A stretch of 64,000 nucleotides of DNA from Blastocatellia bacterium (GCA_035634255.1 DASQDI010000079.1:53214-117213), one strand, 5' to 3'. Positions 2,949-59,495 are shown, numbered from the stretch's first letter. Made by a program: numbers and translations. The notes: generated by a model not told the origin, from the letters alone.

Positions 2949-3000
2949 CCGACAGAACGCTCGCCCGGCTCGCGCCCGCGCCGCAAAGGGACGGAAGGTC

Positions 3001-5079: not shown

Positions 5080-5093
5080 CCCGCTGCGAAGCG

Positions 5094-5421: not shown

Positions 5422-5426
5422 AATCG

Positions 5427-6139: not shown

Positions 6140-6778
6140 ATGGAGATAGCGATTCTTATTTATGACAGGTTCACGGCGCTCGACGCCATAGGGCCTTACG
6201 AAGTCCTGAGATCGGCTCCCGGAGCCAACGTCAGGTTCGTGGCGAGAGAGCGCGGCCCGGTCCGCACGGACGCGGGCAGCCTCGCCGTCGTCGCGGACTA
6301 CGCGCTCGGGGAGGTCACGTCGCCCGATATATTGGTCGTTCCGGGAGGGCCGGGGCAGGTCGCCCTGATGGACGACCGGGAAGTCCTCGACTGGGTCCGC
6401 CGGGTCCACGGGGGGACGAAGTGGACCACCTCCGTCTGCACGGGCTCTTTGATACTCGGGGCGGCGGGGCTGTTGAAGGGACTGCGGGCGACGACCCACT
6501 GGCTCGCTCTGGAAGTGCTCGGCAGGCTGGGCGCCGAGCCCGTGACGGACCGCGTGGTTATCGAAGGGCGGATCATCACGGCGGCGGGAGTCTCCGCCGG
6601 GATCGACATGGCCCTCACTCTGGTCGCCCGCGAGTTCGGGGACGAGATCGCTCAGTCGATACAGCTCGGGATCGAGTACGACCCCCAACCGCCGTTCGAC
6701 GCGGGGTCGCCCTCCAAAGCCCCCAAGGCAGTTGTCGAAAGGCTCCGCGGCTGGGGCCGTTTCATACTTGAAGGTTGA
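6140..6778 (+). CDS. DJ-1/PfpI family protein
   Basis: ILIYDRFTALDAIGPYEVL, nucleophile-elbow SVCTGS and AAGVSAGIDMAL motifs. Confidence 0.85.
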   Translation: MEIAILIYDRFTALDAIGPYEVLRSAPGANVRFVARERGPVRTDAGSLAVVADYALGEVTSPDILVVPGGPGQVALMDDREVLDWVRRVHGGTKWTTSVCTGSLILGAAGLLKGLRATTHWLALEVLGRLGAEPVTDRVVIEGRIITAAGVSAGIDMALTLVAREFGDEIAQSIQLGIEYDPQPPFDAGSPSKAPKAVVERLRGWGRFILEG

Positions 6779-6801
6779 TCGCAACCGGGGAGAGATAATC
6801 T

Positions 6802-9194: not shown

Positions 9195-10172
9195 ATGGCT
9201 ACGTCGAAGAAGAGCAGCAAGTCAGCAAAAAGCAGCAAGGCAATGGGCAAGGCCGAGAAAGAACCGGCCGTCGAGGTGAGGCGCAAGTGCGGGGCGATGC
9301 AGGCGCATTTCCGCCTTCTTGAAGAAGACCCCGGCTTTCGCGCGAGGCAAGCCGACCTGGAACAGTCGACCGCGCGGAGGATGAGCCTGGGCGCGGACAG
9401 CCTCAGGGCGGGCGGGCCATTCACTATTCCCGTCGTCGTCCACGTGGTCTTCAACGCCGCCGCCGAGAACATTTCGATGGCGCAGATCAGGAGCCAGATC
9501 GGCGTGTTGAATCGTGACTTTCAAAACCAGAACGCGGACAGGAGCAAGGTGCCCGCGCCCTTCAAGGGGCTCGCGGCGGACGCCAACATCAGGTTCGTGC
9601 TGGCAAAACATGACCCCGAGGGCAAGCCGACCGATGGCGTGACCCGAACGCAGACAACGCGGACCTCTTTCGGGGCTAACGACTCGGTGAAGTCGTCGGC
9701 CACCGGGGGCCAGGACCCGTGGCCCACGGACAGGTACCTGAACATCTGGGTGTGCAACCTTGGGGGAGGGCTTCTAGGGTACGCGCAGTTCCCCGGAGGG
9801 CCGGCCGAAACCGATGGGGTCGTGATCACTCACAAGGGGTTCGGCAAGGTCGGGACCGCGCAGGCCCCGTTCAATCTTGGCAGGACGACGACGCATGAGA
9901 TCGGCCATTTCCTCAACCTGAGGCACATCTGGGGCGACACGGAAGACTGCTCCGGGACCGACTTCGTCGCGGACACGCCGAATTCGGCCGGGCCGAATTT
10001 CGGCAAGCCCGTCTTCCCGCACGTTTCTTGTAGGAACGGTCCCAACGGTGATATGTTCATGAACTACATGGATTATGTTGACGACGCCGCGATGTTCATG
10101 TTCTCGACCCAGCAGGTAGCGCGTATGCATGCCACCCTCGAAGGGGCTCGCAATACACTGGTCAATCCTTGA
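9195..10172 (+). CDS. M43 (pappalysin/ulilysin-like) zinc metalloprotease
   Basis: THEIGHFLNLRHIWGD extended zincin motif and MNYMDY Met-turn region. AAAGGAG Shine-Dalgarno before the ATG at 9195. Confidence 0.8.
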   Translation: MATSKKSSKSAKSSKAMGKAEKEPAVEVRRKCGAMQAHFRLLEEDPGFRARQADLEQSTARRMSLGADSLRAGGPFTIPVVVHVVFNAAAENISMAQIRSQIGVLNRDFQNQNADRSKVPAPFKGLAADANIRFVLAKHDPEGKPTDGVTRTQTTRTSFGANDSVKSSATGGQDPWPTDRYLNIWVCNLGGGLLGYAQFPGGPAETDGVVITHKGFGKVGTAQAPFNLGRTTTHEIGHFLNLRHIWGDTEDCSGTDFVADTPNSAGPNFGKPVFPHVSCRNGPNGDMFMNYMDYVDDAAMFMFSTQQVARMHATLEGARNTLVNP

Positions 10173-18945: not shown

Positions 18946-19137
18946 GAAATTTCTCCTTTCGATTTAGCGAACGAAATCAACCGGGGTGAGCCTTGTGAAA
19001 TGAGAGCCACAAACAACTCCCGAATAGTATGAGTGGCATAATTCAAAGTCAAGCGAGCCGCTCATGATTTAAAAATAATGAGCATTACTGCTACAATCCT
19101 GCCGTCCAAGCTCCGTATCATTCGAGGAACATATAAA

Positions 19138-21639
19138 ATGAGCAAGCCACCCAGCCGCCGAAGGGAAAAGAATCAAGATAAGTTATCCGAGGTATCCGCC
19201 CTCATCGAGGCAGCGCGCAAGAGTCAAATAATGAGATTGGATTTATCTGGAATGGGCTTCACTGAAGTGCCGGAATCAATTGGCCAGTTAACTCAGCTTC
19301 AGGTTCTACACCTCTCCAATAATAAACTGACAAAGTTGCCCGACTCAATCGGACAGTTGACGCGGCTTCAGAATCTATACCTCTCCGGCAATAGACTGAC
19401 AGAAGTGCCGGAATCAATCGGCCAGTTGACGCGGCTTATAGCTTTGTCCCTATCCAACAATCAACTGGCAAAGTTGCCTGAGTCAATCGGCCGATTAACC
19501 CAGCTTCGAATTCTGTACGCCGATCATAATCATCTAATAAATTTGCCGGAGTCTCTGAAAAGCCTTATATCCCTAAAAGCGCTCTTTCTACATGGGAATG
19601 ACTCACTTAACCTTCCTGCGGAAGTCTTGGGGACAACATGGCAGGAGGCTGCTGCGCAGAAATTGCAGATGGCCAACGCTGCCGACATCATCGATTATTA
19701 TTTTCGCATTCGCGGCGAGCCGCGTCCCTTGAACGAAGCCAAGCTCATTCTGGTCGGTCGCGGAGAGGTGGGCAAGACCACTATAGTCAATCGACTCGTG
19801 CATAAACGATTTAACAAGAATGAAAAGAAGACGGAAGGTATCAATATCACAGCATGGCCGCTCACGCTCAATGGAGATGAGAATGTGCGGCTCAACGTCT
19901 GGGACTTCGGCGGGCAGGAGATTATGCACGCCACCCACCAGTTCTTCCTCACTCAACGCAGCCTTTACCTGCTCGTTCTGAATGGCCGCATGGGTGGCGA
20001 AGAGGCTGAAGCCGAGTACTGGCTCAAGCTCATCGAGAGCTTCGGAGGCGATTCGCCCGTCATCGTCGTGATGAACAAGATCAAGGAACATCCGTTCGAT
20101 GTGAATCGGCGTGCGCTGCAACAAAAGTATCCGGTGATCCGCGACTTCATCAAGACGGATTGTGAAGACGAAACGGGCATTGAAGACCTTCGCAAAGTGA
20201 TTGAGAGAGAGACCGACCGGCTTGAGCATCTGCGCGACTCTTTCCCGGCAAGCTGGTTTTCGATTAAGGATAAACTCGCTGGAATGGAGAAGAACTATCT
20301 GAACTTTGATGAGTACCGCGATGTTTGCGCGGGACTCGGTGAAACAGACTCGAAGGCTCAGGAGGCGCTCGCATTTTATCTGCACAGTCTCGGAATCGCT
20401 CTCAACTACAAAGACGATCCGCGATTGCAGGACACGCACGTCCTGAATCCGCGATGGGTCACGAACGGCATCTATAAGATTTTGAATTCAGACAAGCTTG
20501 AAGAACAGCACGGTCTGATTCGCTTGAGCGATCTGCCCGGAATCCTCGACACATCGGAATACCCAATAAAAATGCACCTTTTTCTGCTCGACCTGATGAA
20601 AAAGTTCGAGCTGTGCTTCAGCTTTCCGGGTGACGAGAACTATTATCTGATTCCCGAACTGCTCGACAAGCAGGAGCCTCTGGACACGGCAAACTTCAAT
20701 CTCGCAGAGTGCTTAAACTTTCAGTATCACTACCCCGTGCTGCCGGAAGGCCTGCTGCCTCGCTTTATAGTCCGTACGCACGCGATGAGTGAGGGCTTAC
20801 CGCGCTGGCGTACCGGAGTAATCCTCAGGTTTGAGAGCAATCAAGCTCTGGTGAAAGCAGATGCGCAGGATAAGAAAGTATTCATCTCCGTTTCAGGCCC
20901 GGCGGCGAGCCGCCGTCGGTTGCTTGCCATAATCCGGTCGGACTTCGAAAGAATCCACCACGACATTCGCAATCTGAAGCCGGAGGAGATGGTCCCTCTT
21001 CCCGATTACCCGCAGGAGACGGTTACTTACCACGAACTGGCGGTGATGGAACAAGCCGGGGTGAATAAGTTCACCAAGGTTGTCGGCAATCGCGTGCTCC
21101 CTCTGGTCGTAGATGACTTGCTCAACGGGGTGGACCTCGAAGGTACTCGCCGGAAGCAGGCGAGGATGGATGAGAGAAGGGATGCGGTGCGGTTGTTCTA
21201 CAGCTATTCGCACAAGGACGAGAGGCTGCGAAACAACCTTGAGACTCACCTGAAGCTGATGCAGCGCCGGGGAGTGATCGACGTGTGGCACGACCGCAAG
21301 ATCGAGGCGGGCGAGGACTGGAAGCAGAAGATCGATCAGAACCTTGAGCAAGCCGACATCATCCTCCTGCTCGTGAGCGCGGACTTTATCAATTCGGATT
21401 ACTGCTATGAGATAGAGATGAAGCGCGCTCTGGAGCGTCACGATAAGGGAGAAGCGAGAGTCGTCCCGGTCATAGTGCGCGATGTGAACTGGTCGGCCGC
21501 CCCGTTCGCGCGGCTGCAAGCCCTGCCTAAAGACGGTCTGCCCGTCAGCAAATGGCGCGACAGGGATTCGGCGCTCCGCAATGTTTCCGAAGGCATTGAA
21601 ATGGTAGTCAAAGAAATGAGAAAGACTACCCGAGCCTGA
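19138..21639 (+). CDS. LRR-Roc(GTPase)-COR-TIR multidomain protein (ROCO family with a TIR effector)
   Basis: Six 23-aa LRRs (LxxLPESIGQLTxLxxLxLSxNxL). Roc motifs GRGEVGKTT and WDFGGQE. Long COR-like middle region. C-terminal TIR: FYSYSHKDE...LLLVSADFINSDYCYEIEM...VVPVIV. Confidence 0.85.
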   Translation: MSKPPSRRREKNQDKLSEVSALIEAARKSQIMRLDLSGMGFTEVPESIGQLTQLQVLHLSNNKLTKLPDSIGQLTRLQNLYLSGNRLTEVPESIGQLTRLIALSLSNNQLAKLPESIGRLTQLRILYADHNHLINLPESLKSLISLKALFLHGNDSLNLPAEVLGTTWQEAAAQKLQMANAADIIDYYFRIRGEPRPLNEAKLILVGRGEVGKTTIVNRLVHKRFNKNEKKTEGINITAWPLTLNGDENVRLNVWDFGGQEIMHATHQFFLTQRSLYLLVLNGRMGGEEAEAEYWLKLIESFGGDSPVIVVMNKIKEHPFDVNRRALQQKYPVIRDFIKTDCEDETGIEDLRKVIERETDRLEHLRDSFPASWFSIKDKLAGMEKNYLNFDEYRDVCAGLGETDSKAQEALAFYLHSLGIALNYKDDPRLQDTHVLNPRWVTNGIYKILNSDKLEEQHGLIRLSDLPGILDTSEYPIKMHLFLLDLMKKFELCFSFPGDENYYLIPELLDKQEPLDTANFNLAECLNFQYHYPVLPEGLLPRFIVRTHAMSEGLPRWRTGVILRFESNQALVKADAQDKKVFISVSGPAASRRRLLAIIRSDFERIHHDIRNLKPEEMVPLPDYPQETVTYHELAVMEQAGVNKFTKVVGNRVLPLVVDDLLNGVDLEGTRRKQARMDERRDAVRLFYSYSHKDERLRNNLETHLKLMQRRGVIDVWHDRKIEAGEDWKQKIDQNLEQADIILLLVSADFINSDYCYEIEMKRALERHDKGEARVVPVIVRDVNWSAAPFARLQALPKDGLPVSKWRDRDSALRNVSEGIEMVVKEMRKTTRA
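19237..19630 (+). repeat. Tandem 69-bp coding repeats (LRR units)
   Basis: Near-identical DNA units, e.g. gtgccggaatcaattggccagttaactcagcttcag and gtgccggaatcaatcggccagttgacgcggctt. Confidence 0.7.
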
Positions 21640-25295: not shown

Positions 25296-25916
25296 CTAAG
25301 GCAGCGCGTTAGGCATGTAATCGACGATCAGGCCATTCTCTCTGTCAACGAGTAACATGTTCGTGCCGACGAACCGGTACCTTAGCTGCTTCGGCAGTTG
25401 CGGAAGTATCAGCAAAAGTGTCGGAGGCATCTCGACCAGCTCTTTCGACTCCGGGTAAGGGTGGTTCACCCGCACGGGAATGCCCTTCGTCTCGGCTTCC
25501 GTGACCGTCTCCCGCAGATCCATCAACTCTTTGTCTCTGAAACGTTCCTTAATGATGGCCCGTATGTGATTGGCGATGTCGGGCGTAAACATAGTTCCGG
25601 GCTTGGCCCCGGTCCTCGATGCCCTGACCACATTCTGAAAAGATTTCTTGTGCGCTTCGATCTCTTCGGGCTTGGCGTCTTTGGACAGCTTCGGCAGCTT
25701 CTCTTCGAGCCCCTCACGCATCTTCACGTACGCCTTCACGCGGTCTTCGAACGCCTTGACGGTCTGGTGGCGGTCGTTCGCCCCGGTAGCTTGAGGGTAC
25801 TGTCTCCGCCCCGCGAGAGTAAGATCGGCCGTCAGCATCACGGGCAGGGTCGCTAAACAGACCGTTAACGCAAGGCCCGCAATGAAAGTGAAGTCTTTGC
25901 TTATCTTCTGTTTCAT
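25296..25916 (-). CDS. Secreted/membrane-anchored hypothetical protein
   Basis: N-terminal hydrophobic segment FIAGLALTVCLATLPVMLTA. The start codon is ambiguous (25916, 25922 or 25934). Confidence 0.55.
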   Translation of the reverse strand: MKQKISKDFTFIAGLALTVCLATLPVMLTADLTLAGRRQYPQATGANDRHQTVKAFEDRVKAYVKMREGLEEKLPKLSKDAKPEEIEAHKKSFQNVVRASRTGAKPGTMFTPDIANHIRAIIKERFRDKELMDLRETVTEAETKGIPVRVNHPYPESKELVEMPPTLLLILPQLPKQLRYRFVGTNMLLVDRENGLIVDYMPNALP

Positions 25917-26194
25917 CAGCATACAGAGGTGCAAGCGCGGTGCCAGAATAAGCCCGACGGAGAGCCCGCGCGCCGGGCGGCTTAAATGTTGGAATAGCTG
26001 TGTTACTGGTATAATTGCGCCCGCATGGACTTCGGCCGGAATATTAGCGGGCGACTACTTGTCGTACAGGCGGTACAGTATTGAAGGCCCGCGTTCTTAT
26101 TATTCTGAAGAGAGTTTCGGGATGAGTTTCGGCGGTGTTAGTATCACCTGCGCGCGGTCTGTGAGGCGCGGGGATTATTTCGACGGAGTGATTC

Positions 26195-28829: not shown

Positions 28830-29861
28830 TCACCGCACGGGGTCGTAGCTGATCCCGAGGGTCATGATTTTTTGCAGCAAGGCTCCATACCCGACTCCGC
28901 AGTGCTCGGCCGAGTCGGCGAAGTCTTCGTTGTGCGCTATCTGGGGGTTCGGGTTCACCTCAAGCACGTAGATCCGGCCATCCTCCCTCAGGCGGTAGTC
29001 GATCCTCGCGTACCCGGTCAGGCCGAGTATCTTGTAGATGCGCTTTGAAAGGCGCTCGAACTCCCTTTTCGCCGGGGGCTCAAGCTCCGCCGGGCGGGTC
29101 GTAAGGCCGATCTTCTTTTGATACTCCACGTCCCACTTGACCTTGCCCGTGGCGATATTGGGCGCTCCTTCCGGCAGGTTGGCCATCACAAGCTCCCACG
29201 GCGTGTAGGCCTGAAGCTTCTGATTGCCGATCACTCCGACGTATATCTCGCGCCCTTCGACGTACTCTTCGGCGATGGCGTGCGTCCCGTTCTGCCGGTG
29301 GATGAACTCCACGCGCTCCTTCAGCCGCTCGTCGTCGCGCACGATTGAGGCCTGCGCTATCCCGACCGAGCCTTCGTCGCTGACCGATTTTACGAAGAGC
29401 GGGAAGGTCAAACGGCCCGGCCTCTGCACCTTGCGGTTGAGCGGGAAGACCCCGAAACGGGGCACGTGCACGCGGTGGTAAGCCAGAATCTTCTTCGTCA
29501 GAGCCTTGTCGTGGGTGAGGGTCAGGCCGCGGGGGTTGCACCCCGTGTACTTTTGCTTCCTCAATTCGAGGTAGCTCACCACGTGCTGGTCGAAGAGCGG
29601 ATAGCCGTCGAACTCTTCGAGCAGGTTGAAAGCTATGTGGGGCTTGTGCTCTTCGATGGCGTCCCGGATAACCCCAAGCTCGCCCCTGACCCCCACGGGC
29701 CAGACGCTGTGCCCCAGCCCGCGCAGGGTGGACACCACGTCGTATTCGGTGCGCCACTCCTCTTTCTCTTTATTGTCGACGCCATCCAGAGTGTCGGGCG
29801 GGACCAGGTCTTCGCGCACCAGCACGATGGCGCGGAGCTTTTTCTTAGGCTTGAATCTCAT
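28830..29861 (-). CDS. ATP-grasp enzyme (D-Ala-D-Ala ligase-like family)
   Basis: FPLFVKSVSDEGSVGI, EEYVEGREIYVGVIG and ARIDYRL...IYVLEVNPNP motifs. The ATG overlaps the upstream stop (ATGA at 29858-29861). Confidence 0.8.
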   Translation of the reverse strand: MRFKPKKKLRAIVLVREDLVPPDTLDGVDNKEKEEWRTEYDVVSTLRGLGHSVWPVGVRGELGVIRDAIEEHKPHIAFNLLEEFDGYPLFDQHVVSYLELRKQKYTGCNPRGLTLTHDKALTKKILAYHRVHVPRFGVFPLNRKVQRPGRLTFPLFVKSVSDEGSVGIAQASIVRDDERLKERVEFIHRQNGTHAIAEEYVEGREIYVGVIGNQKLQAYTPWELVMANLPEGAPNIATGKVKWDVEYQKKIGLTTRPAELEPPAKREFERLSKRIYKILGLTGYARIDYRLREDGRIYVLEVNPNPQIAHNEDFADSAEHCGVGYGALLQKIMTLGISYDPVR

Positions 29862-30850
29862 AGAGCAATCCTGTGATAGCCGGAATGAATTCCGTTCATG
29901 GTCTGGACCGTCAACAGCACGAGCGCCTTCTGCCGCGCATGCTCCGGCGTCAGGTCGACTCGCAGCTTCAGCTCCCTGCAACGGTTGATCATCTGTGTGA
30001 GCATCTGGTCGATGGCGTAGTTGTGCACGCCGGTCGCTTCCGCCACCTCGCGGCATAGCTCGCGGCGGGAGCGTTTGAGGAAGGTGACCGCGCTCGGGGC
30101 TGATTTGTGGCGGGGCTCCGGCGAGAAGATGCGGAGCAGGTCGCGGTCATAATCGCGGGGCCACAGGAAGGCGTAGTATTGCCGCTTCTTCCGGTAATGC
30201 TCGCGCAGAGTCATCTCCAGCCCGGACAACTCGTCGACCCTCTCGCGGGATTCGTCGACGGGCGCCTTGCCCTCAAGCTCTCTGATAATTCCTTCGACGT
30301 ATTCCAGCTTGCGAAGGGCGGGCCAGCCCGCGTACTGCCTCTTCCACCGCGCTCCGGGCGCTACCACCACGGCGAAGGTCTCCGCGAAATCTTCGGCCGG
30401 GTGCGCCTGGGCGTACCACGCCGGAAGGTGCAGGACGTAGTCGCGGCTGTTAGGCTCCGGCTTGTACCAGTTGGGGTAGGGGCGTTTGTACGAGCCGAAC
30501 AACTCCCGGTAGAGCGGCCTGCGGTAAAGGCGAAACGCATTATCCAGCGCGTGGCCTGCCTCATGCCGCATGATCCGGAGGCAGTCTTTTTCGGAGCCGC
30601 CTTCCACTTCCAACATCTGCCTGCGCTCAAGTTTGGACAGCCGGGGGTGGGCCAGGTAAAAAGGGATGGCGAAGCCCGCGACCTGATCGGGGGAGAACCA
30701 CTCTTCGGACAGCCAGACGTGAGGCCTGAATCGAAGGCCGCGAGCTTCGAGCTCTCCGTAGAGCCTCTCGGCGCGGCGCTCAAGGGGAGTCCCTTCGATG
30801 GCGACGGGCAGGTCGCACAGGCGCGCGTCGAGCAATTGCTCGTCCGTCAT
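29858..30850 (-). CDS. Putative zinc metallopeptidase (Peptidase_Mx-like)
   Basis: IMRHEAGHALDNAF (HExxH) and AHPAEDFAETFA motifs. Start taken at ATG 30850; the track uses TTG at 30919. Confidence 0.7.
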   Translation of the reverse strand: MTDEQLLDARLCDLPVAIEGTPLERRAERLYGELEARGLRFRPHVWLSEEWFSPDQVAGFAIPFYLAHPRLSKLERRQMLEVEGGSEKDCLRIMRHEAGHALDNAFRLYRRPLYRELFGSYKRPYPNWYKPEPNSRDYVLHLPAWYAQAHPAEDFAETFAVVVAPGARWKRQYAGWPALRKLEYVEGIIRELEGKAPVDESRERVDELSGLEMTLREHYRKKRQYYAFLWPRDYDRDLLRIFSPEPRHKSAPSAVTFLKRSRRELCREVAEATGVHNYAIDQMLTQMINRCRELKLRVDLTPEHARQKALVLLTVQTMNGIHSGYHRIAL

Positions 30851-31108
30851 GCGATCAAGTTCTTTTGCACGCAACACGCGCCGGAAGCTCCGCCTTAAAT
30901 TTGATAGAGTCTCCTCCAAGCGCCTGCGTGATTATAGCTTATGACGCGGCCCCGCGTCTTTGGCTGGAACTGATTGTTAGGCCATATCTTTCGCGGGGAG
31001 CGGCCGACTCCGTCCGGGCGACAGGGGCTTGCAAAATGGGCAGGGCCAGAACCGGCGATCTCTTTCTCTTAATGATCGTCGTCTTTCTGAACGGAGCCTT
31101 CCGGCGAG

Positions 31109-44220: not shown

Positions 44221-45108
44221 TCATTTGTTAATCGTGGCCCGCCGCTCTTTTTCTAATTTGTCTCGGTACTCGGCCTCGGTTCGCTCCACGAAGTTCCGGT
44301 ACCCGCGAGGGTCGATGAAGGGGTTCGTCTTTTCGCCCCGCTCCATCCGCTTCATCTTCTCTTGCATCGCGAAGAAAGACCCGTGCGGGGCAAGGAACAC
44401 GTCACAGTTCAGAGACTTCAGCAGGCGAAAAGTGTAGTCGTAATCCGAAGCGATCTCCGGGTACTTCGGGTTGTCCGCGAGCTTGTAGCCCGGAGCGGTC
44501 GTGCTGCCTATGAAGACAACGTCGTACTGCCTGCCGCCTTCTTCCACCTTCATGGTCCACGTGGTACAGCCCTTCGTATGCCCCGGCGTCAGGCGCGCGA
44601 CCATCGTGACGCCGCCGAGCTCGACCTTGTCCTTATCCCGCAGCAGGCGGTCCGCCTGAACGGGTTTGAAAGCCAGAGAGTCGCCCCAGGCGAAATCGTC
44701 CCGGCCGCCCCTGGCCAGCAGGGCCGCGTCGGCCTCGCTCGCCATCAGCTTCGCGCCCGTCAGCTCTTTGAGCGTGCCCAGCCCTCCCGCGTGGTCGGAG
44801 TGCGCGTGGCTGTTGATGAGTACCTTCACGTCCTCGATCCTGAACCCCAGCTGCCTGATGTTGCTCCGGATTTGGGGGACCGTCTCTTCGAACCCGCTGT
44901 CGAGAAGTATGTGGCCCGCGGGCGTGGTGATGAGGAAAGAAGTTACGTCGGACGCGCCGACATAATAAATATTCCCGATCACCTTGTAAGGCTTGACGGG
45001 GCGGTTCCACGAGCGCCAGGTCTCGTCGGCCTGCGCTTTCGCAAGCGCGGGGCATAAGAGCAGGGTGACGGCGCAGGCGAGTTTTTTAAGGCGGGATGAA
45101 TTTCGCAT
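44221..45108 (-). CDS. Subclass B3-like metallo-beta-lactamase
   Basis: Signal peptide. HAHSDHAGG, TPGHTKG and LAPHGSFF ligand pattern. Confidence 0.85.
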   Translation of the reverse strand: MRNSSRLKKLACAVTLLLCPALAKAQADETWRSWNRPVKPYKVIGNIYYVGASDVTSFLITTPAGHILLDSGFEETVPQIRSNIRQLGFRIEDVKVLINSHAHSDHAGGLGTLKELTGAKLMASEADAALLARGGRDDFAWGDSLAFKPVQADRLLRDKDKVELGGVTMVARLTPGHTKGCTTWTMKVEEGGRQYDVVFIGSTTAPGYKLADNPKYPEIASDYDYTFRLLKSLNCDVFLAPHGSFFAMQEKMKRMERGEKTNPFIDPRGYRNFVERTEAEYRDKLEKERRATINK

Positions 45109-45133
45109 AGGCCCTCGCTAATCTTTTTCTATA

Positions 45134-45682
45134 TCACTTCTTCAGCTTCGACATGTAGAGCTTGCGGAACTTGGCCACCTTCGGGGCCACCACCGCGCGG
45201 CAATATGGCTGGTTGGGGTTCTGCTCGTAATACTGTTGATGGTAGCCCTCCGCCGGGTAGAAGGTCTCCAGAGGCGTGACCTCCGTGACTATCGGCCGGT
45301 CCCAGACGCGCTCGGCCTCCATCTCTTTAATCACCTGCTCCGCGACTCCCTTCTGCTCGGGCGAGTGATAAAAGATGGCCGAGCGGTATTGCGTGCCGAC
45401 ATCCGCGCCCTGCCGGTTCAGAGTCGTGGGGTCGTGAATGGTGAAGAAGACCTCCAGCAATTCTTTGAAGGAGGCCTCCTTAGGGTCGAAGACGATTTGA
45501 ACCACCTCCGCGTGCCCCGTGGTCCCCGCGCAGACCTGTTGGTAGGACGGGTTGGGCAGGTTGCCGCCGGCGTATCCGGAAGTCACCTTCTCGACGCCTC
45601 GCATGTCATTGAATACCGCTTCGAGGCACCAGAAGCACCCCCCGGCCAGCGTCGCTGTCTCTCTGTCGCTCTCTGAATTCAT
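45134..45682 (-). CDS. msrA: Peptide-methionine (S)-S-oxide reductase
   Basis: GGCFWCLEAVF active site, GHAEVVQIVFDP and YHQQY motifs. Confidence 0.9.
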   Translation of the reverse strand: MNSESDRETATLAGGCFWCLEAVFNDMRGVEKVTSGYAGGNLPNPSYQQVCAGTTGHAEVVQIVFDPKEASFKELLEVFFTIHDPTTLNRQGADVGTQYRSAIFYHSPEQKGVAEQVIKEMEAERVWDRPIVTEVTPLETFYPAEGYHQQYYEQNPNQPYCRAVVAPKVAKFRKLYMSKLKK

Positions 45683-45779
45683 TTGCGCTCCTCGATCTGT
45701 GTTACTCCGCGTGTAAGTATAGCGGCTCTCTGATGCCGTCACAATTCGAGGGAGCGCCGGGCTCCCGAAAGCCGCGCCC

Positions 45780-46076
45780 TCAATCGCGGCTTTCGATGGC
45801 CTTGAGCACCCTCTGCGTGCAGCGGCTGACGTGCGCCCCCAGGGCGAACAGCCCGGCCCCCAGGATCATATAGACCGCCATCGCCGCTATCAGCAGCAGG
45901 ACGTGATTCCGGTTGGAGAAGTCGGCCAGCAGCACGAAGCTCAGCAGGAAGAGAGCCTCGATTGCCAGCCCCGCGACCCAGGCGATCTTGTAAGACCTTT
46001 CGCTCTTATCTATCCGGTCCAGGGCCGACCTCCGCGCCTGTTCGACACCGCTCTCTCTAATCATAATAGCCTCCAT
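45780..46076 (-). CDS. Two-TM membrane protein (possible ECF-associated)
   Basis: 98 aa with two hydrophobic helices. Last gene of the ECF sigma gene string. Confidence 0.5.
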   Translation of the reverse strand: MEAIMIRESGVEQARRSALDRIDKSERSYKIAWVAGLAIEALFLLSFVLLADFSNRNHVLLLIAAMAVYMILGAGLFALGAHVSRCTQRVLKAIESRD

Positions 46077-46089
46077 AGCTCTGCGAAGT

Positions 46090-46212
46090 TCAAACGTAAA
46101 TCTTGAACAGGATGGCCGTGATTATCACCACGGCCTCCACTATCGCCAAAAGGATTATCACGGTCTTCATGACCGGCTTCTGTCTCTCGTCATCGTCGGT
46201 GCTTTCCGGCAT
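46090..46212 (-). CDS. Unannotated 40-aa single-TM micro-protein
   Basis: The minus strand reads MPESTDDDERQKPVMKTVIILLAIVEAVVIITAILFKIYV. A GGAG lies 6 nt upstream of the ATG, overlapping the sigma gene stop codon. Confidence 0.45.
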   Translation of the reverse strand: MPESTDDDERQKPVMKTVIILLAIVEAVVIITAILFKIYV

Positions 46213-46222
46213 ACCCGTCTCC

Positions 46223-46786
46223 TCACTTTTCGAGATCGCCGCGCGGCCCGCAGCTCTGCAGGTTTTTGCGGAGGGTCGCGAGGCCGTACGAGAGCCTCGA
46301 CTTAACCGTGCCTACCGGCAGCCCCAGCACGTCCGCGACTTCCTGTAGGGACATCTCGTGCAGGTAGTGCAGCACGAGGACGGCCCGGTTACCGGGAGAG
46401 ACCCGGCCCAGAAGGTCGGGGATGCGCTCCAACAGTTCGGGCTCGAACGCGTCCTGCGCGGGCGCGGGTATGGCTTCGAGGACCGCTTCGTCCCTGACCT
46501 GATCCGACCACCTGCGCTCCTTCCTCAGAGACCTGAAAGCCTCTCGGCTCGCTATCCTGTACGCCCACGGCCTGAAAAGCTCCGGCTGCCTGAGCCAGTA
46601 GAGTTTCTTGTAGATCAACAACAGCACTTCCTGAAGCGCGTCTTCGGCGAGCCCCGGCTCTCTCACAAGGCTGAGGATGTAGCGGTAGAGCGGGACCTCG
46701 ATGTTCCTGAAAAGCTCGTCGAGCGCGGCCCGGTCTCCGGTCTGGGCCAGCAGCACGCGCATGATCTCCCGCTTTTCAGTCGCCAT
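46223..46786 (-). CDS. ECF-type sigma-70 family RNA polymerase sigma factor
   Basis: Region 2 (DALQEVLLLIYKKL...FRPWAYRIA) and region 4 (MSLQEVADVLGLPVGTVKSRL). Confidence 0.9.
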   Translation of the reverse strand: MATEKREIMRVLLAQTGDRAALDELFRNIEVPLYRYILSLVREPGLAEDALQEVLLLIYKKLYWLRQPELFRPWAYRIASREAFRSLRKERRWSDQVRDEAVLEAIPAPAQDAFEPELLERIPDLLGRVSPGNRAVLVLHYLHEMSLQEVADVLGLPVGTVKSRLSYGLATLRKNLQSCGPRGDLEK

Positions 46787-46918
46787 TTTCTCTCTCCATT
46801 ATTTAAGAGGAAGCGGCCCGCGAAACTGTTCGGATTTGTTCGAGTTTAATCTGAGAATCGGCTGGCTCGGGCTGGGATTACTTGCGGGGACGGGCCTCGC
46901 GCCCGCCCCGGTCTTCGT

Positions 46919-48199
46919 TCAGTGCGGCAGAATCTTGTCGAGACTCTTCAGCAGGTCGTTGCCGCGAAGGCCGGGCTGCCCCTTTTTCGTGTTGTTGAGC
47001 GAGATGATCCTGCCGTCCGGCCCGATGAGCATGGTGGTCGGGTACGAATTGATTCGCAGGTTTCGGATGACCCGGATGATGCTGTCCATCTTCGCCTGAG
47101 TCCAGGGCATGCCGTTCTTTTCGAGGGTCGTCTTCACCTGCGGCATCACCTCCGGCTGATCGGTGTTCAGCCCGAGAATCTCGAAGCCCCTCGCCTGAAA
47201 GCGCGAGTACGCCGCCTTGAGGTAGGGGAGTTCCTGGCGGCAGGGGGGGCACCACATGCCCCAGAAATCTATCAGCACGTGCTTGCCCCTGAATTCCGAC
47301 AGCCTGCGCTTTTTGCCATTGAAATCGGTGAACTCGAAGTCGGGCATCTCCTTCCCAACCGCCACTTCGATGCGCTTGTAGTCCGACGCCGGATGCGACC
47401 TCATCGTTATTAGGTTCTTTTCCAGGTCGACCTTCTTGGTGGAGACGTAGTTGTTGCCGACCCGGAAGACGACCGCTTCGTCCTGCGTCTCGGCCGCTTC
47501 GGGGGAGAAGGGGTCGAAGTCGACCTCGCCGTCGCCGTCGGCGTCAACCCCGAGCCTGCCATTCATCACGCTGATCTTATTCGCGCGCGCGTTGTAATCG
47601 TACTGCACGAGCGTCTTCCTGCCCTGAATATCGACGAACCCCGCGGCGAAGGCTGCCCTCGACTCGAACAGCATGCGTTCATCGTCGGACATGCCCTCCC
47701 ACCGCACATTCTTCATGTACTGGACGAACAAAGGGAAGCTCTGGAACGGTCCCTCTTTGAGTGGCTGGCTGACGGACGCCTCCCAGATGTATGGGTTGTC
47801 TTCTTCCCCGCGCTTGAACTCGAACCGCTCGCTCTCGTCGAACTGATTGTTGAGGTCGATGTCCGCGAGCAGGTAAGGCGGCTCGTCTTCCGGCTCGACC
47901 AGCAGAGTCAGGATGGCCGACTTGTCGTTGAGCACGTGATAGAGGCGGCCCGCCGTAACGGTCGCGCCTTTCTCAATCGGCTTCGCGAGCCTGAGCTTTG
48001 ACAGGTCGGCGATGGGCCTGAAGGCCACGTGCTCTCGGCCATCCCGGTTGACCCTCAACTGCGGCTCCAGCTTCCCGGTGTATTCGCCGTCGGCCCGGAC
48101 GGGCGGAGCCAGAGGAAGCATCAGAGCGAGCGCGGAGACGATCCCGGCGGAGCGCACGATAGCCTGGGCGCGGGGCTTCATTCGAAACGGTATTCTCAT
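46919..48199 (-). CDS. Secreted TlpA/redoxin-like thiol-disulfide oxidoreductase with a large N-terminal domain
   Basis: Signal peptide. C-terminal HVLIDFWGMWCPPCRQELP thioredoxin fold with a CxxC motif. Confidence 0.8.
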   Translation of the reverse strand: MRIPFRMKPRAQAIVRSAGIVSALALMLPLAPPVRADGEYTGKLEPQLRVNRDGREHVAFRPIADLSKLRLAKPIEKGATVTAGRLYHVLNDKSAILTLLVEPEDEPPYLLADIDLNNQFDESERFEFKRGEEDNPYIWEASVSQPLKEGPFQSFPLFVQYMKNVRWEGMSDDERMLFESRAAFAAGFVDIQGRKTLVQYDYNARANKISVMNGRLGVDADGDGEVDFDPFSPEAAETQDEAVVFRVGNNYVSTKKVDLEKNLITMRSHPASDYKRIEVAVGKEMPDFEFTDFNGKKRRLSEFRGKHVLIDFWGMWCPPCRQELPYLKAAYSRFQARGFEILGLNTDQPEVMPQVKTTLEKNGMPWTQAKMDSIIRVIRNLRINSYPTTMLIGPDGRIISLNNTKKGQPGLRGNDLLKSLDKILPH

Positions 48200-48310: not shown

Positions 48311-48350
48311 TAATAACGAAACCGGCCGGGCGTGTTAAGCTCGGCCGGTT
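48311..48350 (-). terminator. Terminator-like hairpin downstream of the precursor ORF
   Basis: Perfect 9-bp stem (48320-48328 with 48342-48350, AACCGGCCG/CGGCCGGTT). On the minus strand it is followed by UCGUUAUUA. Confidence 0.5.
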
Positions 48351-48409
48351 CATTCGCGCATGTTATCCATATGCTTGAGACCTCTTTCCAGAAGGCCCGG
48401 AGGCAAGCT

Positions 48410-48580
48410 TTACTTGCCCCTGCTGCTCACTTCATCCGTATCCGACGGGTACTTCAACGTCTGCGGCGGCGGGCTTTCTTCACCGGTTCCACCGGCCTTG
48501 ATGCTGGTCTTCACATTCGGAAAATCCTGTCCTTCAAGATATCTCGCAAAGAATGGTGTCTCTGCTTTACTCCTGTTCAT
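48410..48580 (-). CDS. Microviridin/marinostatin-family (graspetide) precursor peptide candidate
   Basis: 56-aa ORF MNRSKAETPFFARYLEGQDFPNVKTSIKAGGTGEESPPPQTLKYPSDTDEVSSRGK. AAGGAGGAG lies 6 nt before the ATG. It has the leader motif PFFARYL and the core TLKYPSDTDE. It is below the ORF-track length cutoff. Confidence 0.75.
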   Translation of the reverse strand: MNRSKAETPFFARYLEGQDFPNVKTSIKAGGTGEESPPPQTLKYPSDTDEVSSRGK

Positions 48581-48708
48581 TTCTCGCTCCTCCTTGTATC
48601 TCCACTTATATTTATTCGGCGAGAATCATGCTGCCTCGCCTGTCCACATTCGGCGGATCGTTGCCGCCTTAAATCTCCGCCTGATGCTTTCAGCGTCGAT
48701 CTGTTTAG

Positions 48709-48736
48709 TTAATATCGCAAGCGGTGTGCCACTCAA
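48709..48736 (-). promoter_or_regulatory. Possible sigma70-like promoter of the precursor gene
   Basis: Minus strand: TTGAGT (48731-48736), 16-nt spacer, TATTAA (48709-48714). Confidence 0.3.
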
Positions 48737-49075
48737 GAAATGCGAAAACTCTTAGGGAAAACGCCATTTTCGGCCTCTGCAAGCCCCGAACGAAATCACG
48801 GCTACGGTGTGTACTGTATGAGGATGGACGGATGTACGTTTTAAGATTATGTGACAACGCCCGTGTGTATCAGTGAGATTCAACTCTATCACTAAATGAT
48901 AATGCTGCGGGGCAGGGCGCGGCTCGCGCGAGATGATGCGCCCATCTGTGCGCGTGCAACAGGGGACATCTGTTGCGCGCCGAGCCCTGCTCTCACAGGT
49001 CCCCTCCGCAGGGGACGGGGCAGGAAAGGCGAGGGGGATGACTCGCTTTCCGCCCGGAGCGATCTCATCTATTTT

Positions 49076-52348: not shown

Positions 52349-52454
52349 TCAGGAATGGTGGGCGGGCGGCGCAACGCGGTATCACAGGGGTCCGCTAAAC
52401 AAGTTACTCCCCGCCGCGCGCCCGTCAGAATAGGGAAGAAAAGGATCTGCGGAC

Positions 52455-55106
<2,652 letters not shown>

Positions 55107-55144
55107 CGGCGAGTATAAGCGAGTAACAAGGAGAAAGATCAGAC

Positions 55145-56248
55145 ATGAAAGCTATCGCAGTATACCCCGGAAAACCCGGCAGCGTTCACCTGGCCGAATT
55201 GCCGAAGCCCTCGACCTCCGAAATCCCCGGCGGGCGTGGCGTGCTGGTCAAGGTCCTGCGCGTCGGCGTGGACGGCACGGACAAGGAGATCAACGCGGCG
55301 GAATACGGCGCGGCCCCCGAAGGCTACGACTTTCTGGTGCTCGGCCACGAGAGCTTCGGGCAGGTCGAGTCGGTCGGGCCGAACGTCTCGGGATTGGAGC
55401 CCGGCGATTACGTCGTGGCGACCGTCCGGCGTCCGGGGTCGAGCATATACGACCTCATCGGCACGAACGATATGACCACCGACGACACCTACTTCGAGCG
55501 CGGCATCAACCTGCTCCACGGGTACCTGACCGAGTACTACGTCGACGACGCGGAGTTCATAGTGAAAGTCCCGCGGGGGCTGAAGGAAGTCGGCGTGCTG
55601 CTTGAGCCCGCGACCGTGGTGGAGAAGGGAATAGCTCAGGCGTACGAGATACAGCGCCGCCTCCGCGTGTGGCGCCCGAAGCGCGCGGCCGTCATGGGCG
55701 CGGGGACCATCGGCCTGCTCGCCACGCTCGTCCTGCGTCTGCGCGGGCTCGAGGTCGTCACCTTCGCCAAGTCCCCGAAGCCCTACATCAACTCCGACCT
55801 GCTCGAAGAGATCGGCGCTCAATATATCTCGACCGCCGACGTGCCCCTGCTCGACGCGGCGCGCGAGGCGGGGCCGTTCGACCTGATATTCGAGGCGACT
55901 GGTTACTCTCCCATCGTCTTCGACAGCATGCAGGTGCTCGGGAAAAACGGCGTGCTCGTGCTTTCGAGCGTGACGGGAGGCGACCGGAAAGTCGAGGTGC
56001 CCGCCGACAGGATCAACCTCGAATTCGTGCTGGGCAATAAGGTGATGGTCGGCACGGTCAACGCCAACCGCGAGTATTTCGAAATGGGTGTGCGCGACCT
56101 CTCGCAGACCGAGCTTGAGTATCCGGGCTGGCTCGCGAGACTGCTCACGCACCCCGTCAAGGGGCTGGAAAATTACGGAGAGCTGTTCGAGAAGCTCACC
56201 AACGCCAAGGGCGCGATCAAAGTATTCTGCGAGGTCGCGCCCCTGTAG
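55145..56248 (+). CDS. Glucose 1-dehydrogenase (MDR family, archaeal/haloarchaeal type)
   Basis: MKAIAVYPG...[13 protein letters not shown]...[12 protein letters not shown]...VVATVRRPG and the GAGTIGLL Rossmann motif. Confidence 0.8.
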
Positions 56249-56261
56249 AACAGGTGCCGGA

Positions 56262-58286
56262 ATGATCGAATTCACCGAAGAGATTTGCGGAGACCTGAGC
56301 GCCGCTTCGAGGCGCGAGTGGCTTGAGACTAACGGAATCGGCGGCTTCGCCTCGTCCACCCTGACCGGGCTCAACACGCGGCGCTATCACGGCCTGCTGG
56401 TCGCCGCGACCCGCCCGCCCGTCGGAAGGCTGCTGCTGCTTTCAAAGCTCGAAGAGACTCTCGTCGTCGGCGGGCGGAGATTCGACCTATCGGCCAATCA
56501 ATACCCCGGCGCGATTCACCCGCGAGGCTTCGCCTACCTCAAACGTTTCAGGCTCGACCCCTTCCCCGTCTTCACCTACGGGGTGGAAGGCTTCGAGATA
56601 GAGAAGTCAATCTTTATGATCCATGGCGAAAACTCTTCGGTCGTCCAGTACGAAGCCCGCAGCCTTGAAGGCGCCCGATTAACCTGCGCGCTCGAAGTGC
56701 GCCCGCTCGTGGCCTTCCGCGATTATCACGGCACGACGCATGAGAACGGCGCGCTCGACCCCCGCGTGGAGGTCGAAGAGGGCAGGGCTAGCTTCGCGCC
56801 CTACCGCGACCTGCCCGCGCTCCACTTCGCTCACGACGCGGAAGAGATTCGGCCCGAGGGGTTCTGGTACCGCAGCTTCGAGTACGAGGCCGAGCGCGAG
56901 CGGGGGCTCGATTTCAAAGAAGACCTCTTCAATCCATTCGCCCTCACTTTCGACCTTTCGCGCAAGCCGCGCGCGGCCATAATCGCTTCGACCGAGCCGC
57001 GCGACGCGGCGGCGGCGGGCTCTTACCGCATGACCGAGCTGGGCAGGCGCGAGCGGCTTCAGTCCGCCCCGCCGGGCGGCGAGCTTGCGCGGGCGCTAGT
57101 CTCTGCCTCCGACCAGTTCATCGTCGCGCGCGGGGACCACAAGACGGTCATCGCGGGGTACCACTGGTTCACCGACTGGGGCCGCGACACGATGATCGCC
57201 CTGCCGGGCCTCACCCTGGCGACCGGGCGCTTCGACGTTGCGAAGAGCATCCTGCTCGAATTCGCCCGCCACCTCGATCAGGGCATGCTCCCAAACCGCT
57301 ACCCCGACGCGGGAGAGGCCCCCGAATACAACACAGTGGACGCGACCCTCTGGTTCTTCGAGGCGGTTCGCTCGCTCGCGGATTACAGCAGAGATTATGA
57401 ATTCATACGGCGGAATCTTTATGAAGCGATGGCCGAATCGATAGACTGGCACGTGCGCGGCACGCGCTTCGGCATACGGGTGGACGAGGACGCCCTGCTC
57501 GCCTCGGGGGCCGAGGGCGCGCAGCTCACGTGGATGGACGCGAAAGTGGGGGATTACGTCGTGACCCCCCGGCGCGGGAAGCCCGTCGAGATTCAGGCTC
57601 TATGGTACAACGCCCTCCGCGTCATGGAAGGATTCGCGCGAAGATTCGGGGAAGCCGGGCGCGAGCGGCTATTCGGCAGGATGGCCCGGCGCGCGAAGCG
57701 GAGTTTCAATAAAAAGTTCTGGAATGAAGATGAAGGCTGCCTCTACGACGTGGTCGGTGGCGGCGCGCCCGCCCCTTCGGCAGACCCTTCCGTCCGCCCC
57801 AACCAAATTTTCGCGGTCAGCCTGCCTCACGCAATGCTCTCGCGGGATAAGGCGAGGCGCGTGGTCGAAACGGTCGAGCGCGACCTGCTCACCCCCTTCG
57901 GGCTGAGAAGCCTCTCGCCGGCGGATGCTCAATATATCGGGCGGTACGAAGGCGACCCGTGGCGGCGGGATGTCTCCTACCATCAGGGGACGGTGTGGTC
58001 GTGGCTGATGGGGCCATTCATCACCGCGTACATCAAAGTGAATTCGGCAAACGAACCCGGCCGGGCGCGTGCCCGCGCTCGCGCCGAGGGGTGGGTCGCG
58101 GCCTTTCGCGAGCACCTCTTCGACGCGGGCCTTAATCAGGTGTCAGAGATATTCGACGGGGACGCTCCGCACGAGCCGCGCGGCTGCATCGCGCAGGCGT
58201 GGAGCGTGGCCGAACTATTGCGCGCGACGTTCGAGGATATTTACGAGCTTAAGCCGGCCGGGCGGAGCAGCGCCGCCGGCGCTTAG
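56262..58286 (+). CDS. Glycogen debranching enzyme-like amylo-alpha-1,6-glucosidase
   Basis: REWLETNGIGGFASSTLTGLNTRRYHGLLVAA N-terminal domain. GYHWFTDWGRDTMIAL and YHQGTVWSWLMGPF in the GDE_C region. Confidence 0.85.
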   Translation: MIEFTEEICGDLSAASRREWLETNGIGGFASSTLTGLNTRRYHGLLVAATRPPVGRLLLLSKLEETLVVGGRRFDLSANQYPGAIHPRGFAYLKRFRLDPFPVFTYGVEGFEIEKSIFMIHGENSSVVQYEARSLEGARLTCALEVRPLVAFRDYHGTTHENGALDPRVEVEEGRASFAPYRDLPALHFAHDAEEIRPEGFWYRSFEYEAERERGLDFKEDLFNPFALTFDLSRKPRAAIIASTEPRDAAAAGSYRMTELGRRERLQSAPPGGELARALVSASDQFIVARGDHKTVIAGYHWFTDWGRDTMIALPGLTLATGRFDVAKSILLEFARHLDQGMLPNRYPDAGEAPEYNTVDATLWFFEAVRSLADYSRDYEFIRRNLYEAMAESIDWHVRGTRFGIRVDEDALLASGAEGAQLTWMDAKVGDYVVTPRRGKPVEIQALWYNALRVMEGFARRFGEAGRERLFGRMARRAKRSFNKKFWNEDEGCLYDVVGGGAPAPSADPSVRPNQIFAVSLPHAMLSRDKARRVVETVERDLLTPFGLRSLSPADAQYIGRYEGDPWRRDVSYHQGTVWSWLMGPFITAYIKVNSANEPGRARARARAEGWVAAFREHLFDAGLNQVSEIFDGDAPHEPRGCIAQAWSVAELLRATFEDIYELKPAGRSSAAGA

Positions 58287-58316: not shown

Positions 58317-58538
58317 GTGGACGCGGCCTTGAGGCTGCGGTTCGAGGTCTTCAACCTTGAGCTTGGAGAAGGGCTCGAATCCTCCTTTCAAACCGGCCGG
58401 GACTCGGATGAGTTCGACGAGACGTGCCATCACCTTGTCGTCTACGAGACGGCGAGGGGCGAGGTCGTCGGCACCTACCGCATGCAGACATCAGAGATGG
58501 CGCGGGCCGCGCGAGGCCTCTACTCCGCCGGTCAATGA
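58317..58538 (+). pseudogene. Fragment of a GNAT-type N-acyltransferase (OlsB/hemolysin-like family)
   Basis: [16 protein letters not shown]...[12 protein letters not shown]...VVGTYRMQ...LYSAG, then a stop. Only about 70 aa are present, whereas family members are several-fold longer. Confidence 0.55.
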
Positions 58539-59010
58539 CTTTTCTCGATCACGTGGCAAGGCTCTTCTCCCTGACTGAAATTTACGCGACCCTCAGCTTC
58601 GGCCCCGAGCCGGTTCGCGACGGCGACCGGAAAGCGCTGGCGGGAAAGCTGTGGCGAGCAGTCATGGATGAATTCACACCGGCGGTTATATTGGAGGAAG
58701 AATGCGCCCCCCGGCATCCTGATCGAAGACAACATCCACGCCCTACGGCAGGGAATCGAACTGATAGAAAGCATCGATCACCGCCTCTTCGTGACCCCGA
58801 CGCCGCCTCAATGGGCCGGATCGATTATGAAGACAGGCGGAGGAACGTTCTGGCCGAATCGGACCGCGGGCTCGCGATAATCGAGGCCATGTCGGTTTCG
58901 AAGGCCGGCGAGTCAAAGATCGGAATCCTTCGCGGCCTCGGCGGCGTGAAGGATTTTGTGGCCCGCGCGTCGCTGATAGAAGGGGCCTCGACCCATTCGC
59001 GAAGCTCTAA

Positions 59011-59249
59011 AAAGCGAATCGCTTCATCTCAGAAAACGACCTCTGCTTTCCCGTGGTCCTGAAGCCGAACGAGGGCCAGCGCGGGTCGGGCGTTATGATC
59101 GTCGGATCGGAGGGCGAGTTAAAAGACAACCTGAATCGCTCGCGGGTGGACATGCTGATTCAGGAGTACGCGCCGGGTTCGAGTTCAGAGTCTTCTACAT
59201 CCGCCGCCCGGAGGAAGAGAGGGGCACGATCTTTTCCATAACCGAGAAG
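59011..59249 (+). pseudogene. ATP-grasp gene fragment, frameshifted and truncated at both ends
   Basis: FPVVLKPNEGQRGSGVMIV...MLIQEYAPG in one frame continues as GFEFRVFYIRRPEEERGTIFSITEK in another (1-nt shift near 59176). There is no N-terminal domain and no C-terminal half. Confidence 0.55.
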
Positions 59250-59495
59250 GCCGGTGACCCCCATTGAAAGGACCGCCCCCAGACTCACGGTCGAGGGGAT
59301 GAGCAGCAGGACGGAGGCTATCAACTCGACTATGCCCGAACCTATCCTGCCCCACGGCTCAAGGCCGAGGGTAGAGAATATGTAGACCGATTCTTCCGCT
59401 CCGGTGAATTTGAAAAACAACGTCTGCAAAAGGATGACGGCGGCCGCGATTTGAAATACCCAACTGAGCACGTCTTCTACTCTGCTCAAACTCAT
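59160..59495 (-). pseudogene. DoxX-like membrane protein, 3'-truncated
   Basis: ILLQTLFFKFTGAEESVYIFSTLGLEPWGRIGSGIVELIASVLLLIP is DoxX-like. After about residue 85 the reading frame runs antisense through the ATP-grasp fragment. Confidence 0.5.

Follow-up and report, generated by a model that had tools for sequence, protein, structure and literature searches.

A conserved microviridin/marinostatin family precursor gene encoded apart from any ligase, with an apparent sigma-54-type promoter, in a soil acidobacterium

The precursor gene and its flanking signals

The 64-kb stretch of Blastocatellia DNA analysed here (the window) carries on its minus strand, at positions 48410-48580, a gene of 56 codons plus stop with the translation MNRSKAETPFFARYLEGQDFPNVKTSIKAGGTGEESPPPQTLKYPSDTDEVSSRGK*, preceded by the Shine-Dalgarno sequence AAGGAGGAG (48587-48595, minus strand) 6 nt upstream of the ATG; coordinates, translation and ribosome-binding site are exactly as described in an earlier note on this DNA. 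The leader of the peptide comprises PFFARYLEGQ (residues 9-18, with PFFARYL at 9-15) and VKTSIKAGG (residues 23-31), which holds a double-glycine-type site, and is followed by the spacer GTGEESPPPQ, a single core TLKYPSDTDE (residues 41-50) and the C-terminal tail VSSRGK, the two hallmark motifs standing in the order that the note had reported. The core follows the pattern T-x-K-Y-P-S-D-x-[DE]-[DE] and offers the donor and acceptor residues of two esters and an amide.

A profile search, the check that the note had proposed, assigns the peptide to the family with both curated models, Pfam PF12559 (Inhibitor_I10; 35 bits, E 1.6e-8, curated cut-off 21) and NCBIfam NF033738 (microvirid_RiPP; 44.7 bits, E 1.7e-11, curated cut-off 26). 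The latter, entitled 'microviridin/marinostatin family tricyclic proteinase inhibitor', is used by the NCBI annotation pipeline for naming proteins; the ORF, described earlier as unannotated, had looked so because of a 60-aa cut-off, and the label does not hold as the naming model matches. The resemblance of the motifs to those of microviridin/marinostatin precursors is far beyond chance, and the peptide is an addition to a known family already recognised by curated models and not the representative of an undescribed class.

Upstream of the gene lies a sigma-54-type element, TGGCAC-N5-TTGC (TGGCACACCGCTTGC, -24/-12, 48717-48731, minus strand), which ends 137 nt before the ATG. In 5/5 orthologous loci TGGCAC and TTGC are invariant and the 5-nt spacer is variable, at coding sequence dS values of up to 0.8-1.5, and the window holds two matches to the pattern where 0.04 would be expected. 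Further upstream, 75-115 nt from the -24, the conserved box TAAAACGTACATCCGTCCATCCTCATACAGTACACA (48805-48845, minus strand) shows the arrangement GTACA-N18-GTACA; it is near-invariant in the alignment of the five loci, with the pattern TAAAACGTACATCC.T.CAT.CTCAT..AGTACA, and has a single match in the window against 0.07 expected. As enhancer-binding proteins usually have their sites at this distance, the box is a candidate activator-binding site, and the gene is apparently driven by a sigma-54 promoter of its own. Neither an enhancer-binding protein (GAFTGA and Walker-A bEBP motifs) nor rpoN (RpoN-box) was found in the 64-kb window. Alignment among the upstream regions of the five loci is good only in the ~265 nt nearest the gene (61-85% identity), the distal intergenic part being 21-50% identical. 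Of the roughly 500 bp of lower-GC upstream DNA claimed earlier, the proximal 270 nt bear out the description (48.5% versus 61% for the window), but the distal intergenic part does not (60.9%).

The sole other exact TGGCAC-N5-TTGC in the window, at 25931-25945 on the minus strand, is located approximately 10 nt upstream of ATGCTGATGAAACAG, where a 212-aa ORF (25296-25934) without a Pfam match begins, and may be another sigma-54 promoter that gives rise to an almost leaderless transcript.

Between promoter element and start codon extends a conserved 5'UTR of 136 nt (48581-48716, minus strand) with three predicted hairpins, at 48672-48701, at 48652-48668 (GGCGG-CAACGAT-CCGCC, invariant) and at 48618-48640 (GGCGAG..CTCGCC), all on the minus strand. 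RNAalifold predicts 22 pairs, four of them with compensatory changes, and AAGGAGGA at the ribosome-binding site is unchanged in 5/5 orthologous loci. An Rfam search of the precursor locus assigned no family and gave a sub-threshold chance match only, and a covariance model of the 5'UTR, run against the window and 54 loci, recovered its five training sequences, all of this clade, and nothing else.

Starting 56 nt past the stop codon, a terminator-like G+C hairpin (ACCGGCCG..CGGCCGGU) followed by the U-rich UUUCGUUAUU occupies 48315-48354 on the minus strand, where the earlier note had placed the gene's own terminator. The 113-nt stretch after the stop folds at -40.7 kcal/mol (z = -2.96); a simple terminator scan missed the hairpin because its loop exceeds 8 nt. 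With a conserved promoter, a 5'UTR and a terminator-like hairpin of its own, the precursor gene constitutes a self-contained, monocistronic transcription unit, as had been surmised from the sequence.

Conservation of the gene and its surroundings

A search of 5.8 billion clustered proteins identified 29 precursor homologues, all with PF12559, in the alignment of which (28-29 homologues) P9, F10, F11, L15, E16, Q18, K24, T25, G30 and P45 are invariant. Nine of them (P0001-P0009) possess a single core, are 67-100% identical and form a clade from Blastocatellia (Acidobacteriota), while most of the others (P0010-P0029) contain two tandem cores, T-x-K-[YF]-P-S-D-x-D-E twice. The variable spacer of the single-core clade, GTGEESPPPQ in the window, sits where the two-core group has its first core. 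In this alignment the single-core clade has lost the first core relative to its two-core relatives, and the precursor is probably a single-core derivative of cluster precursors. A scan of metagenomes for nearer relatives retrieved mainly two-core cluster precursors and no member of the single-core clade.

DNA was compared for the window and four further representatives of the single-core clade (L120, L121, L122 and L006). Pairwise dN/dS of the precursor coding sequence is 0.07-0.45 at dS of up to 1.5, the reading frames are intact and all indels are in frame, a pattern that indicates a coding gene under purifying selection. Within the clade, substitutions pile up in spacer and tail, of which SSRG[KR] is conserved, and the leader and the core TLKYPSD[TSA][DE][DE] are kept; as both are retained while spacer and tail drift, selection covers the core as well as the leader. 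The 56-codon gene of this soil acidobacterium is thus real and conserved, and its product is a group 1 graspetide precursor (microviridin/marinostatin family).

Among species-representative genomes the closest match to the window is L006, from the Blastocatellia (Acidobacteriota) MAG SMAG_U13779, in agreement with the earlier impression of a lineage that is not cyanobacterial. The two are collinear across the precursor, which has the same position in both, with flanking proteins (FMN reductase, LysR regulator, beta-lactamase-family protein, ECF sigma factor, MsrA and metallo-beta-lactamase) 74-88% and DNA 72-85% identical, the position having been maintained over genus-level divergence. That the gene is a decaying, presently functionless relic of a former cluster, as one core fewer than in the two-core relatives and the lack of adjacent biosynthetic genes might indicate, is strongly disfavoured and hardly credible in view of the low dN/dS, the intact frames and the exclusively in-frame indels in five loci at dS of up to 1.5, together with the conservation of ribosome-binding site, promoter, UTR and genomic position.

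The gene immediately upstream of the precursor encodes a protein of 544-556 aa whose N-terminus is zinc-finger-like and which also has one membrane segment and a CarboxypepD_reg domain. It is the sole immediate neighbour kept together with the precursor, evolves fast (46% identity between window and L006) and, in its 556-aa form, has no catalytic domain match among Pfam and NCBIfam models. The downstream neighbour is a TlpA-like redoxin in the window versus a PQQ_2 beta-propeller gene in L006; as the redoxin is not conserved at that position, it was rejected as a functional partner. Up to 8 kb away, the remaining genes serve ordinary metabolism (2OG oxygenase, M10 peptidase, glyoxalase, GH63-like hydrolase, zinc dehydrogenase and glycogen debranching enzyme).

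Several features of these surroundings deserve mention in their own right. Downstream of the precursor terminator, a same-strand gene run (44221-48199, minus strand) comprises the TlpA-like redoxin, extended at its N-terminus by 270 aa, an ECF sigma factor, a 98-aa ORF that matches no Pfam family and stands where one would expect an anti-sigma factor gene, MsrA and a metallo-beta-lactamase-fold protein; conserved in L006 with the exception of the redoxin, the run looks like an oxidative or envelope-stress module. On the other side, the minus-strand ORFs 52425-55091 and 55139-56377 are shadow ORFs in DNA of 61% GC, the real genes being a GH63/MGH1-like hydrolase (52455-55106) and a zinc dehydrogenase (55145-56248) on the plus strand. 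Neither the hydrolase nor the debranching enzyme (56088-58286) occurs in the syntenic L006, so that both constitute an insertion relative to the sister genome.

With respect to regulation, the 400 nt upstream of 160 precursor genes from 119 loci were surveyed for the sigma-54 element with at most one mismatch. Matches occur in 9/160 regions, at a background rate of 0.008 per 400 nt; the single-core clade accounts for eight of them, its fetched loci, and L013 for the ninth, and all nine precursor loci are ligase-less. The clustered precursors checked (L007, L126) have no sigma-54 element upstream and lack the structured 5'UTR as well. In L013 (9878-10156; Blastocatellia MFD09206.bin.2.102), an independent low-GC, ligase-less precursor, MSTQNKTPDKEQPFFARYLEGQMFPDVKTGIKAGHTSQKSSDNDEVPTTLKFPSDSEDAGR, with a degenerate first core is preceded by a perfect sigma-54 element, TTGGCACCCTACTTGCA, approximately 50 nt before the ATG, and followed by its own terminator hairpin; directly upstream of the element lies TAAAAC..TCCATCC, which is related to the upstream box of the window. 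As L013 has it independently, the remote sigma-54-type design recurs outside the clade of the window. Both the invariant sigma-54-type promoter and the conserved structured 5'UTR are new here relative to the earlier note.

Regulation separate from that of the clustered precursors, a first core position decayed into spacer and 64 kb of surrounding DNA with no ligase would also suit a peptide that is made but not cyclised, either a leader-bearing decoy or activator that titrates ligases or exporter, or an unrelated small signalling peptide. We consider this unlikely, as the leader alone would suffice for a decoy, whereas the core is conserved in the clade to the same degree as the leader, with all ester and amide donors and acceptors kept.

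Ligases within and beyond the window

The usual hallmark of the family, an adjacent pair of MdnB/MdnC ligases (MvdD-type, PF21068), is absent from the precursor locus. In tblastn searches of the window with the two MvdD-type ligases and the ABC exporter of the canonical cluster L005 nothing was found below E 1.3, and a hidden Markov model (HMM) built from 122 MvdD-type ligases, applied with all filters off (--max) to all six-frame ORFs of at least 50 aa, gave a best E of 0.026. The statement that no ligase, GNAT or ABC exporter adjoins the gene can accordingly be extended to the entire 64-kb window, where an MvdD-type ligase, a GNAT and a cluster-type ABC exporter are all absent; a second PFF-type peptide or precursor was not found there either. 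The top score of the ligase model, 8.7 bits, falls on an 853-aa protein (19078-21639, plus strand) in which LRR, Roc GTPase and COR-A/COR-B precede a C-terminal TIR domain; this bacterial ROCO-TIR architecture recalls defence proteins of the NTPase-TIR kind.

The Ddl-like ATP-grasp gene noticed earlier 19 kb away is indeed present (28830-30056, minus strand, 408 aa). It was rejected as the ligase of the precursor, being of the D-Ala-D-Ala ligase type (Dala_Dala_lig_C, E 7e-27) and not MvdD (2.9 bits against the MvdD ligase model), and it is unlinked to the precursor in L006. It overlaps the end of a gene for a Peptidase_Mx-like zinc peptidase (353 aa), and the two (28830-30919, minus strand) possibly form an amidoligase/peptidase pair that has nothing to do with the precursor. 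The 'decayed ATP-grasp fragment' proposed for 59.0-59.25 kb is, on the other hand, not supported: the ORFs there have no ATP-grasp match, one (58424-59062) belonging to no Pfam family and the other (59160-59495) being weakly MauE/DoxX-like, and the ligase model scores nothing.

It is very unlikely that another enzyme encoded nearby modifies the peptide in a new graspetide arrangement, be it the 556-aa zinc-finger/TM/CarboxypepD_reg protein, for which its status as the only immediate neighbour conserved with the precursor speaks, or the Ddl-like ATP-grasp with its Peptidase_Mx-like partner. The former has no catalytic domain match and, at 46% identity versus 74-88% for the other flanking genes, is less well conserved than these; the latter neither resembles MvdD nor accompanies the precursor in L006, and the leader of the precursor is of the type used by precursors of MvdD clusters.

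Relatives provide the missing components at a distance. Although binning errors are possible, as the link consists of two contigs binned in one MAG, the 13-kb precursor contig L006 is without a ligase and L007, another contig of its MAG, holds a full cluster in which two MvdD-type ligases and three precursors accompany a C39-peptidase ABC exporter and a second ABC protein. The leader of the L007 precursors reads PFFARFLE.Q..VKT.IKAG, and PFFAR[FY]LEGQ..VKT..K[AG]G is common to the window precursor and the cluster precursors of L007, L126 and L005. No binning caveat applies to the 7.9-Mb contig CAWDRU010000002.1 (Blastocatellia MFD04935.bin.1.50), on which a full cluster, L012, at ~0.85 Mb is separated by 6.3 Mb from L021, a ligase-less precursor at 7.16 Mb. 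The trans arrangement, a remote precursor and a cluster in one genome, is thus shown to exist in relatives.

A survey of 61 precursor genes from species-representative genomes with at least 9 kb of flank on each side indicates how common such separation is. The distances are bimodal, adjacent or remote: in 54/61 genes a ligase is located within 2 kb (median 379 nt), and in the remaining seven (~11%; L013, L021, L033, L049, L052, L053 and L074), which come from Blastocatellia, Pyrinomonadaceae and Nostoc, a ligase is absent within ~10 kb.

In the 73.7-kb ENA contig L126, which has five tandem precursors, the C39-ABC exporter is called as three pieces (2676-7559) and the first ligase as a 240-aa product (9265-9987), probably owing to assembly frameshifts or real decay.

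For the strain of the window itself, a search with the L007 ligase defined a discrete clade of eight proteins (81-90% identity, next best 71%), a range in line with that of the proteins flanking the precursor in window and L006. One of the ligases, P0034, is 83% identical to the L007 ligase, carries the NCBI name of an MvdD-family maturase from a Blastocatellia MAG, as ligases of this lineage are already annotated automatically, and is encoded in the Logan run SRR9290673, which also yields L001, a sequence 99.74% identical to the window over 11,280 nt. The contig of P0034 (L123) and the terminal part of the L007 cluster are collinear at 79.8% nucleotide identity, the shared segment comprising the C-terminus of ligase 1, ligase 2 and a hybrid histidine kinase; this divergence matches that between window and L006 (72-85%). 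Both clades are very rare, with nine single-core precursors and nine L007-type ligases among 5.8 billion clustered proteins, and with the divergence matched and the run the same, P0034 and the window are best explained by, but do not prove, one organism; among the ligases looked up, this is the single sample co-occurrence of the two clades obtained, as P0032, P0036 and P0037 come from samples that differ from those of the precursor clade.

Many related acidobacteria live in soil metagenomes, and co-occurrence and matched divergence are what links P0034 to the window, so that the P0034 contig could derive from a different, co-occurring Blastocatellia species and the precursor be a strict orphan in a genome without any ligase. 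The rarity of both clades, the presence of both loci in the sister MAG and the purifying selection on the core, which would require a maturase, make this decidedly improbable. An MvdD-type ligase elsewhere in the genome of the window strain, as deduced from the sister MAG and the ligase of the same run, is likely, and of the two readings offered at the outset the orphan precursor served by a distant ligase is the one supported.

Proposed maturation in trans and relation to known systems

Taking these observations together, the gene is probably a 'satellite' precursor, transcribed alone from a sigma-54 promoter and matured in trans by a distant canonical cluster, whereby we infer the ligase in its own genome, the sigma-54 dependence, the cross-links and the target. 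Transcription from the sigma-54-dependent promoter would proceed through the structured 5'UTR, and the leader helix PFFARYLEGQ of the translated peptide would serve to recruit and activate a canonical cluster's pair of MvdD-type ATP-grasp ligases, encoded elsewhere in the genome. These are predicted to form the omega-esters Thr41-Asp47 and Ser46-Asp49 and the omega-amide Lys43-Glu50, pairs which we presume by mapping the core onto microviridin. The C39-peptidase ABC exporter of the cluster would then cut at the conserved KAG/GG site, as K-A/G-G after the leader fits the double-glycine-type site expected for its C39 peptidase domain, and export a product, (G)TGEESPPPQ-core-VSSRGK, that is possibly trimmed further. 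With Leu42 in the position that determines specificity, the predicted targets of the product are serine proteases of the elastase, chymotrypsin or subtilisin type. Both the 10-residue spacer and the SSRG[KR] tail set the precursor apart from characterised microviridins, so that its handling by the ligases might differ.

More tentatively, and with slightly less than an even chance of being correct, it can be proposed that Blastocatellia keep a vertically inherited satellite precursor with a sigma-54 promoter and structured 5'UTR. Differently regulated substrates would then share one set of maturases and one exporter, and the inhibitor would be made only under a condition sensed by an enhancer-binding protein.

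The precursor is, in any case, a clean example of a remotely encoded and apparently separately regulated graspetide precursor, with the ligase in its own genome presumed from relatives. Surveys of graspetides look for precursors one or two genes away from an ATP-grasp gene (PMC8939145), and because only such neighbours are taken, remote precursors escape them, even though, with 7/61 well-flanked genes, they are not rare here. If the satellite interpretation is true, ligase-centred genome mining would systematically miss this layer. With respect to applicability, promoter and 5'UTR make the timing and control of protease-inhibitor deployment in a soil acidobacterium accessible to testing, and the precursor together with a ligase pair of the P0034 type constitutes a ready substrate-enzyme pair for heterologous production.

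Among the closest known systems are the microviridins MdnA/MvdE of Microcystis and Planktothrix, with which the precursor shares a PFFARFL-type leader helix, the Pfam and NCBIfam models and the core T-x-K-Y-P-S-D-x-acidic-acidic with all three ring-forming pairs; the PFFARFL leader and the ring pattern of microviridins have been described (PMC8939145). As in the MdnB/MdnC (MvdC/MvdD) systems, relatives of the precursor adjoin two MvdD-type ligases. Unlike the microviridin genes, however, the precursor is acidobacterial and not cyanobacterial, stands alone at least 15 kb (the distance to the nearer window end) from any ligase and has a putative sigma-54 promoter, while its core ends in TDE where microviridin has WEE and is framed by a 10-residue spacer before and a 6-residue tail after it. 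Instead of the cyanobacterial GNAT/ABC set, the cluster of its relatives possesses a C39-ABC exporter, with a KAG/GG site in the precursors.

Marinostatin of Alteromonas, the core of which is FATMRYPSDSDE according to literature cited in PMC8939145, is recognised by the same family models and has a nearly identical core ending, YPSDSDE versus YPSDTDE in the precursor. Marinostatin is bicyclic, with two esters, because it carries an Arg where the precursor has a Lys; Lys43 would permit a third, amide ring. Precursors with several cores behind one leader, such as a cyanobacterial three-core substrate (PMC5934393) and chryseoviridin (PMC8939145), are resembled by the nearest relatives outside the clade, which carry two tandem cores and one leader, whereas the clade of the window is without the first core and has GTGEESPPPQ, or its variants, in its place.

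A limited literature search returned no description of orphan or remote microviridin-type precursors or of sigma-54 control of graspetides. The common denominator with prochlorosins, the well-known case in which ProcA precursors scattered across the genome are served by a single ProcM maturase (PMC10783134), is a shared leader in precursors located far from a trans-acting maturase, as seen here in L012/L021. Prochlorosins are, on the other hand, lanthipeptides with Nif11 leaders and thus another RiPP class, and one or few remote copies, for which separate sigma-54 control is proposed, are present here. Cumulatively, peptide, leader and core belong to a familiar family, and what appears less familiar is the remote, monocistronic, sigma-54-type arrangement of a single-core derivative of two-core ancestors.
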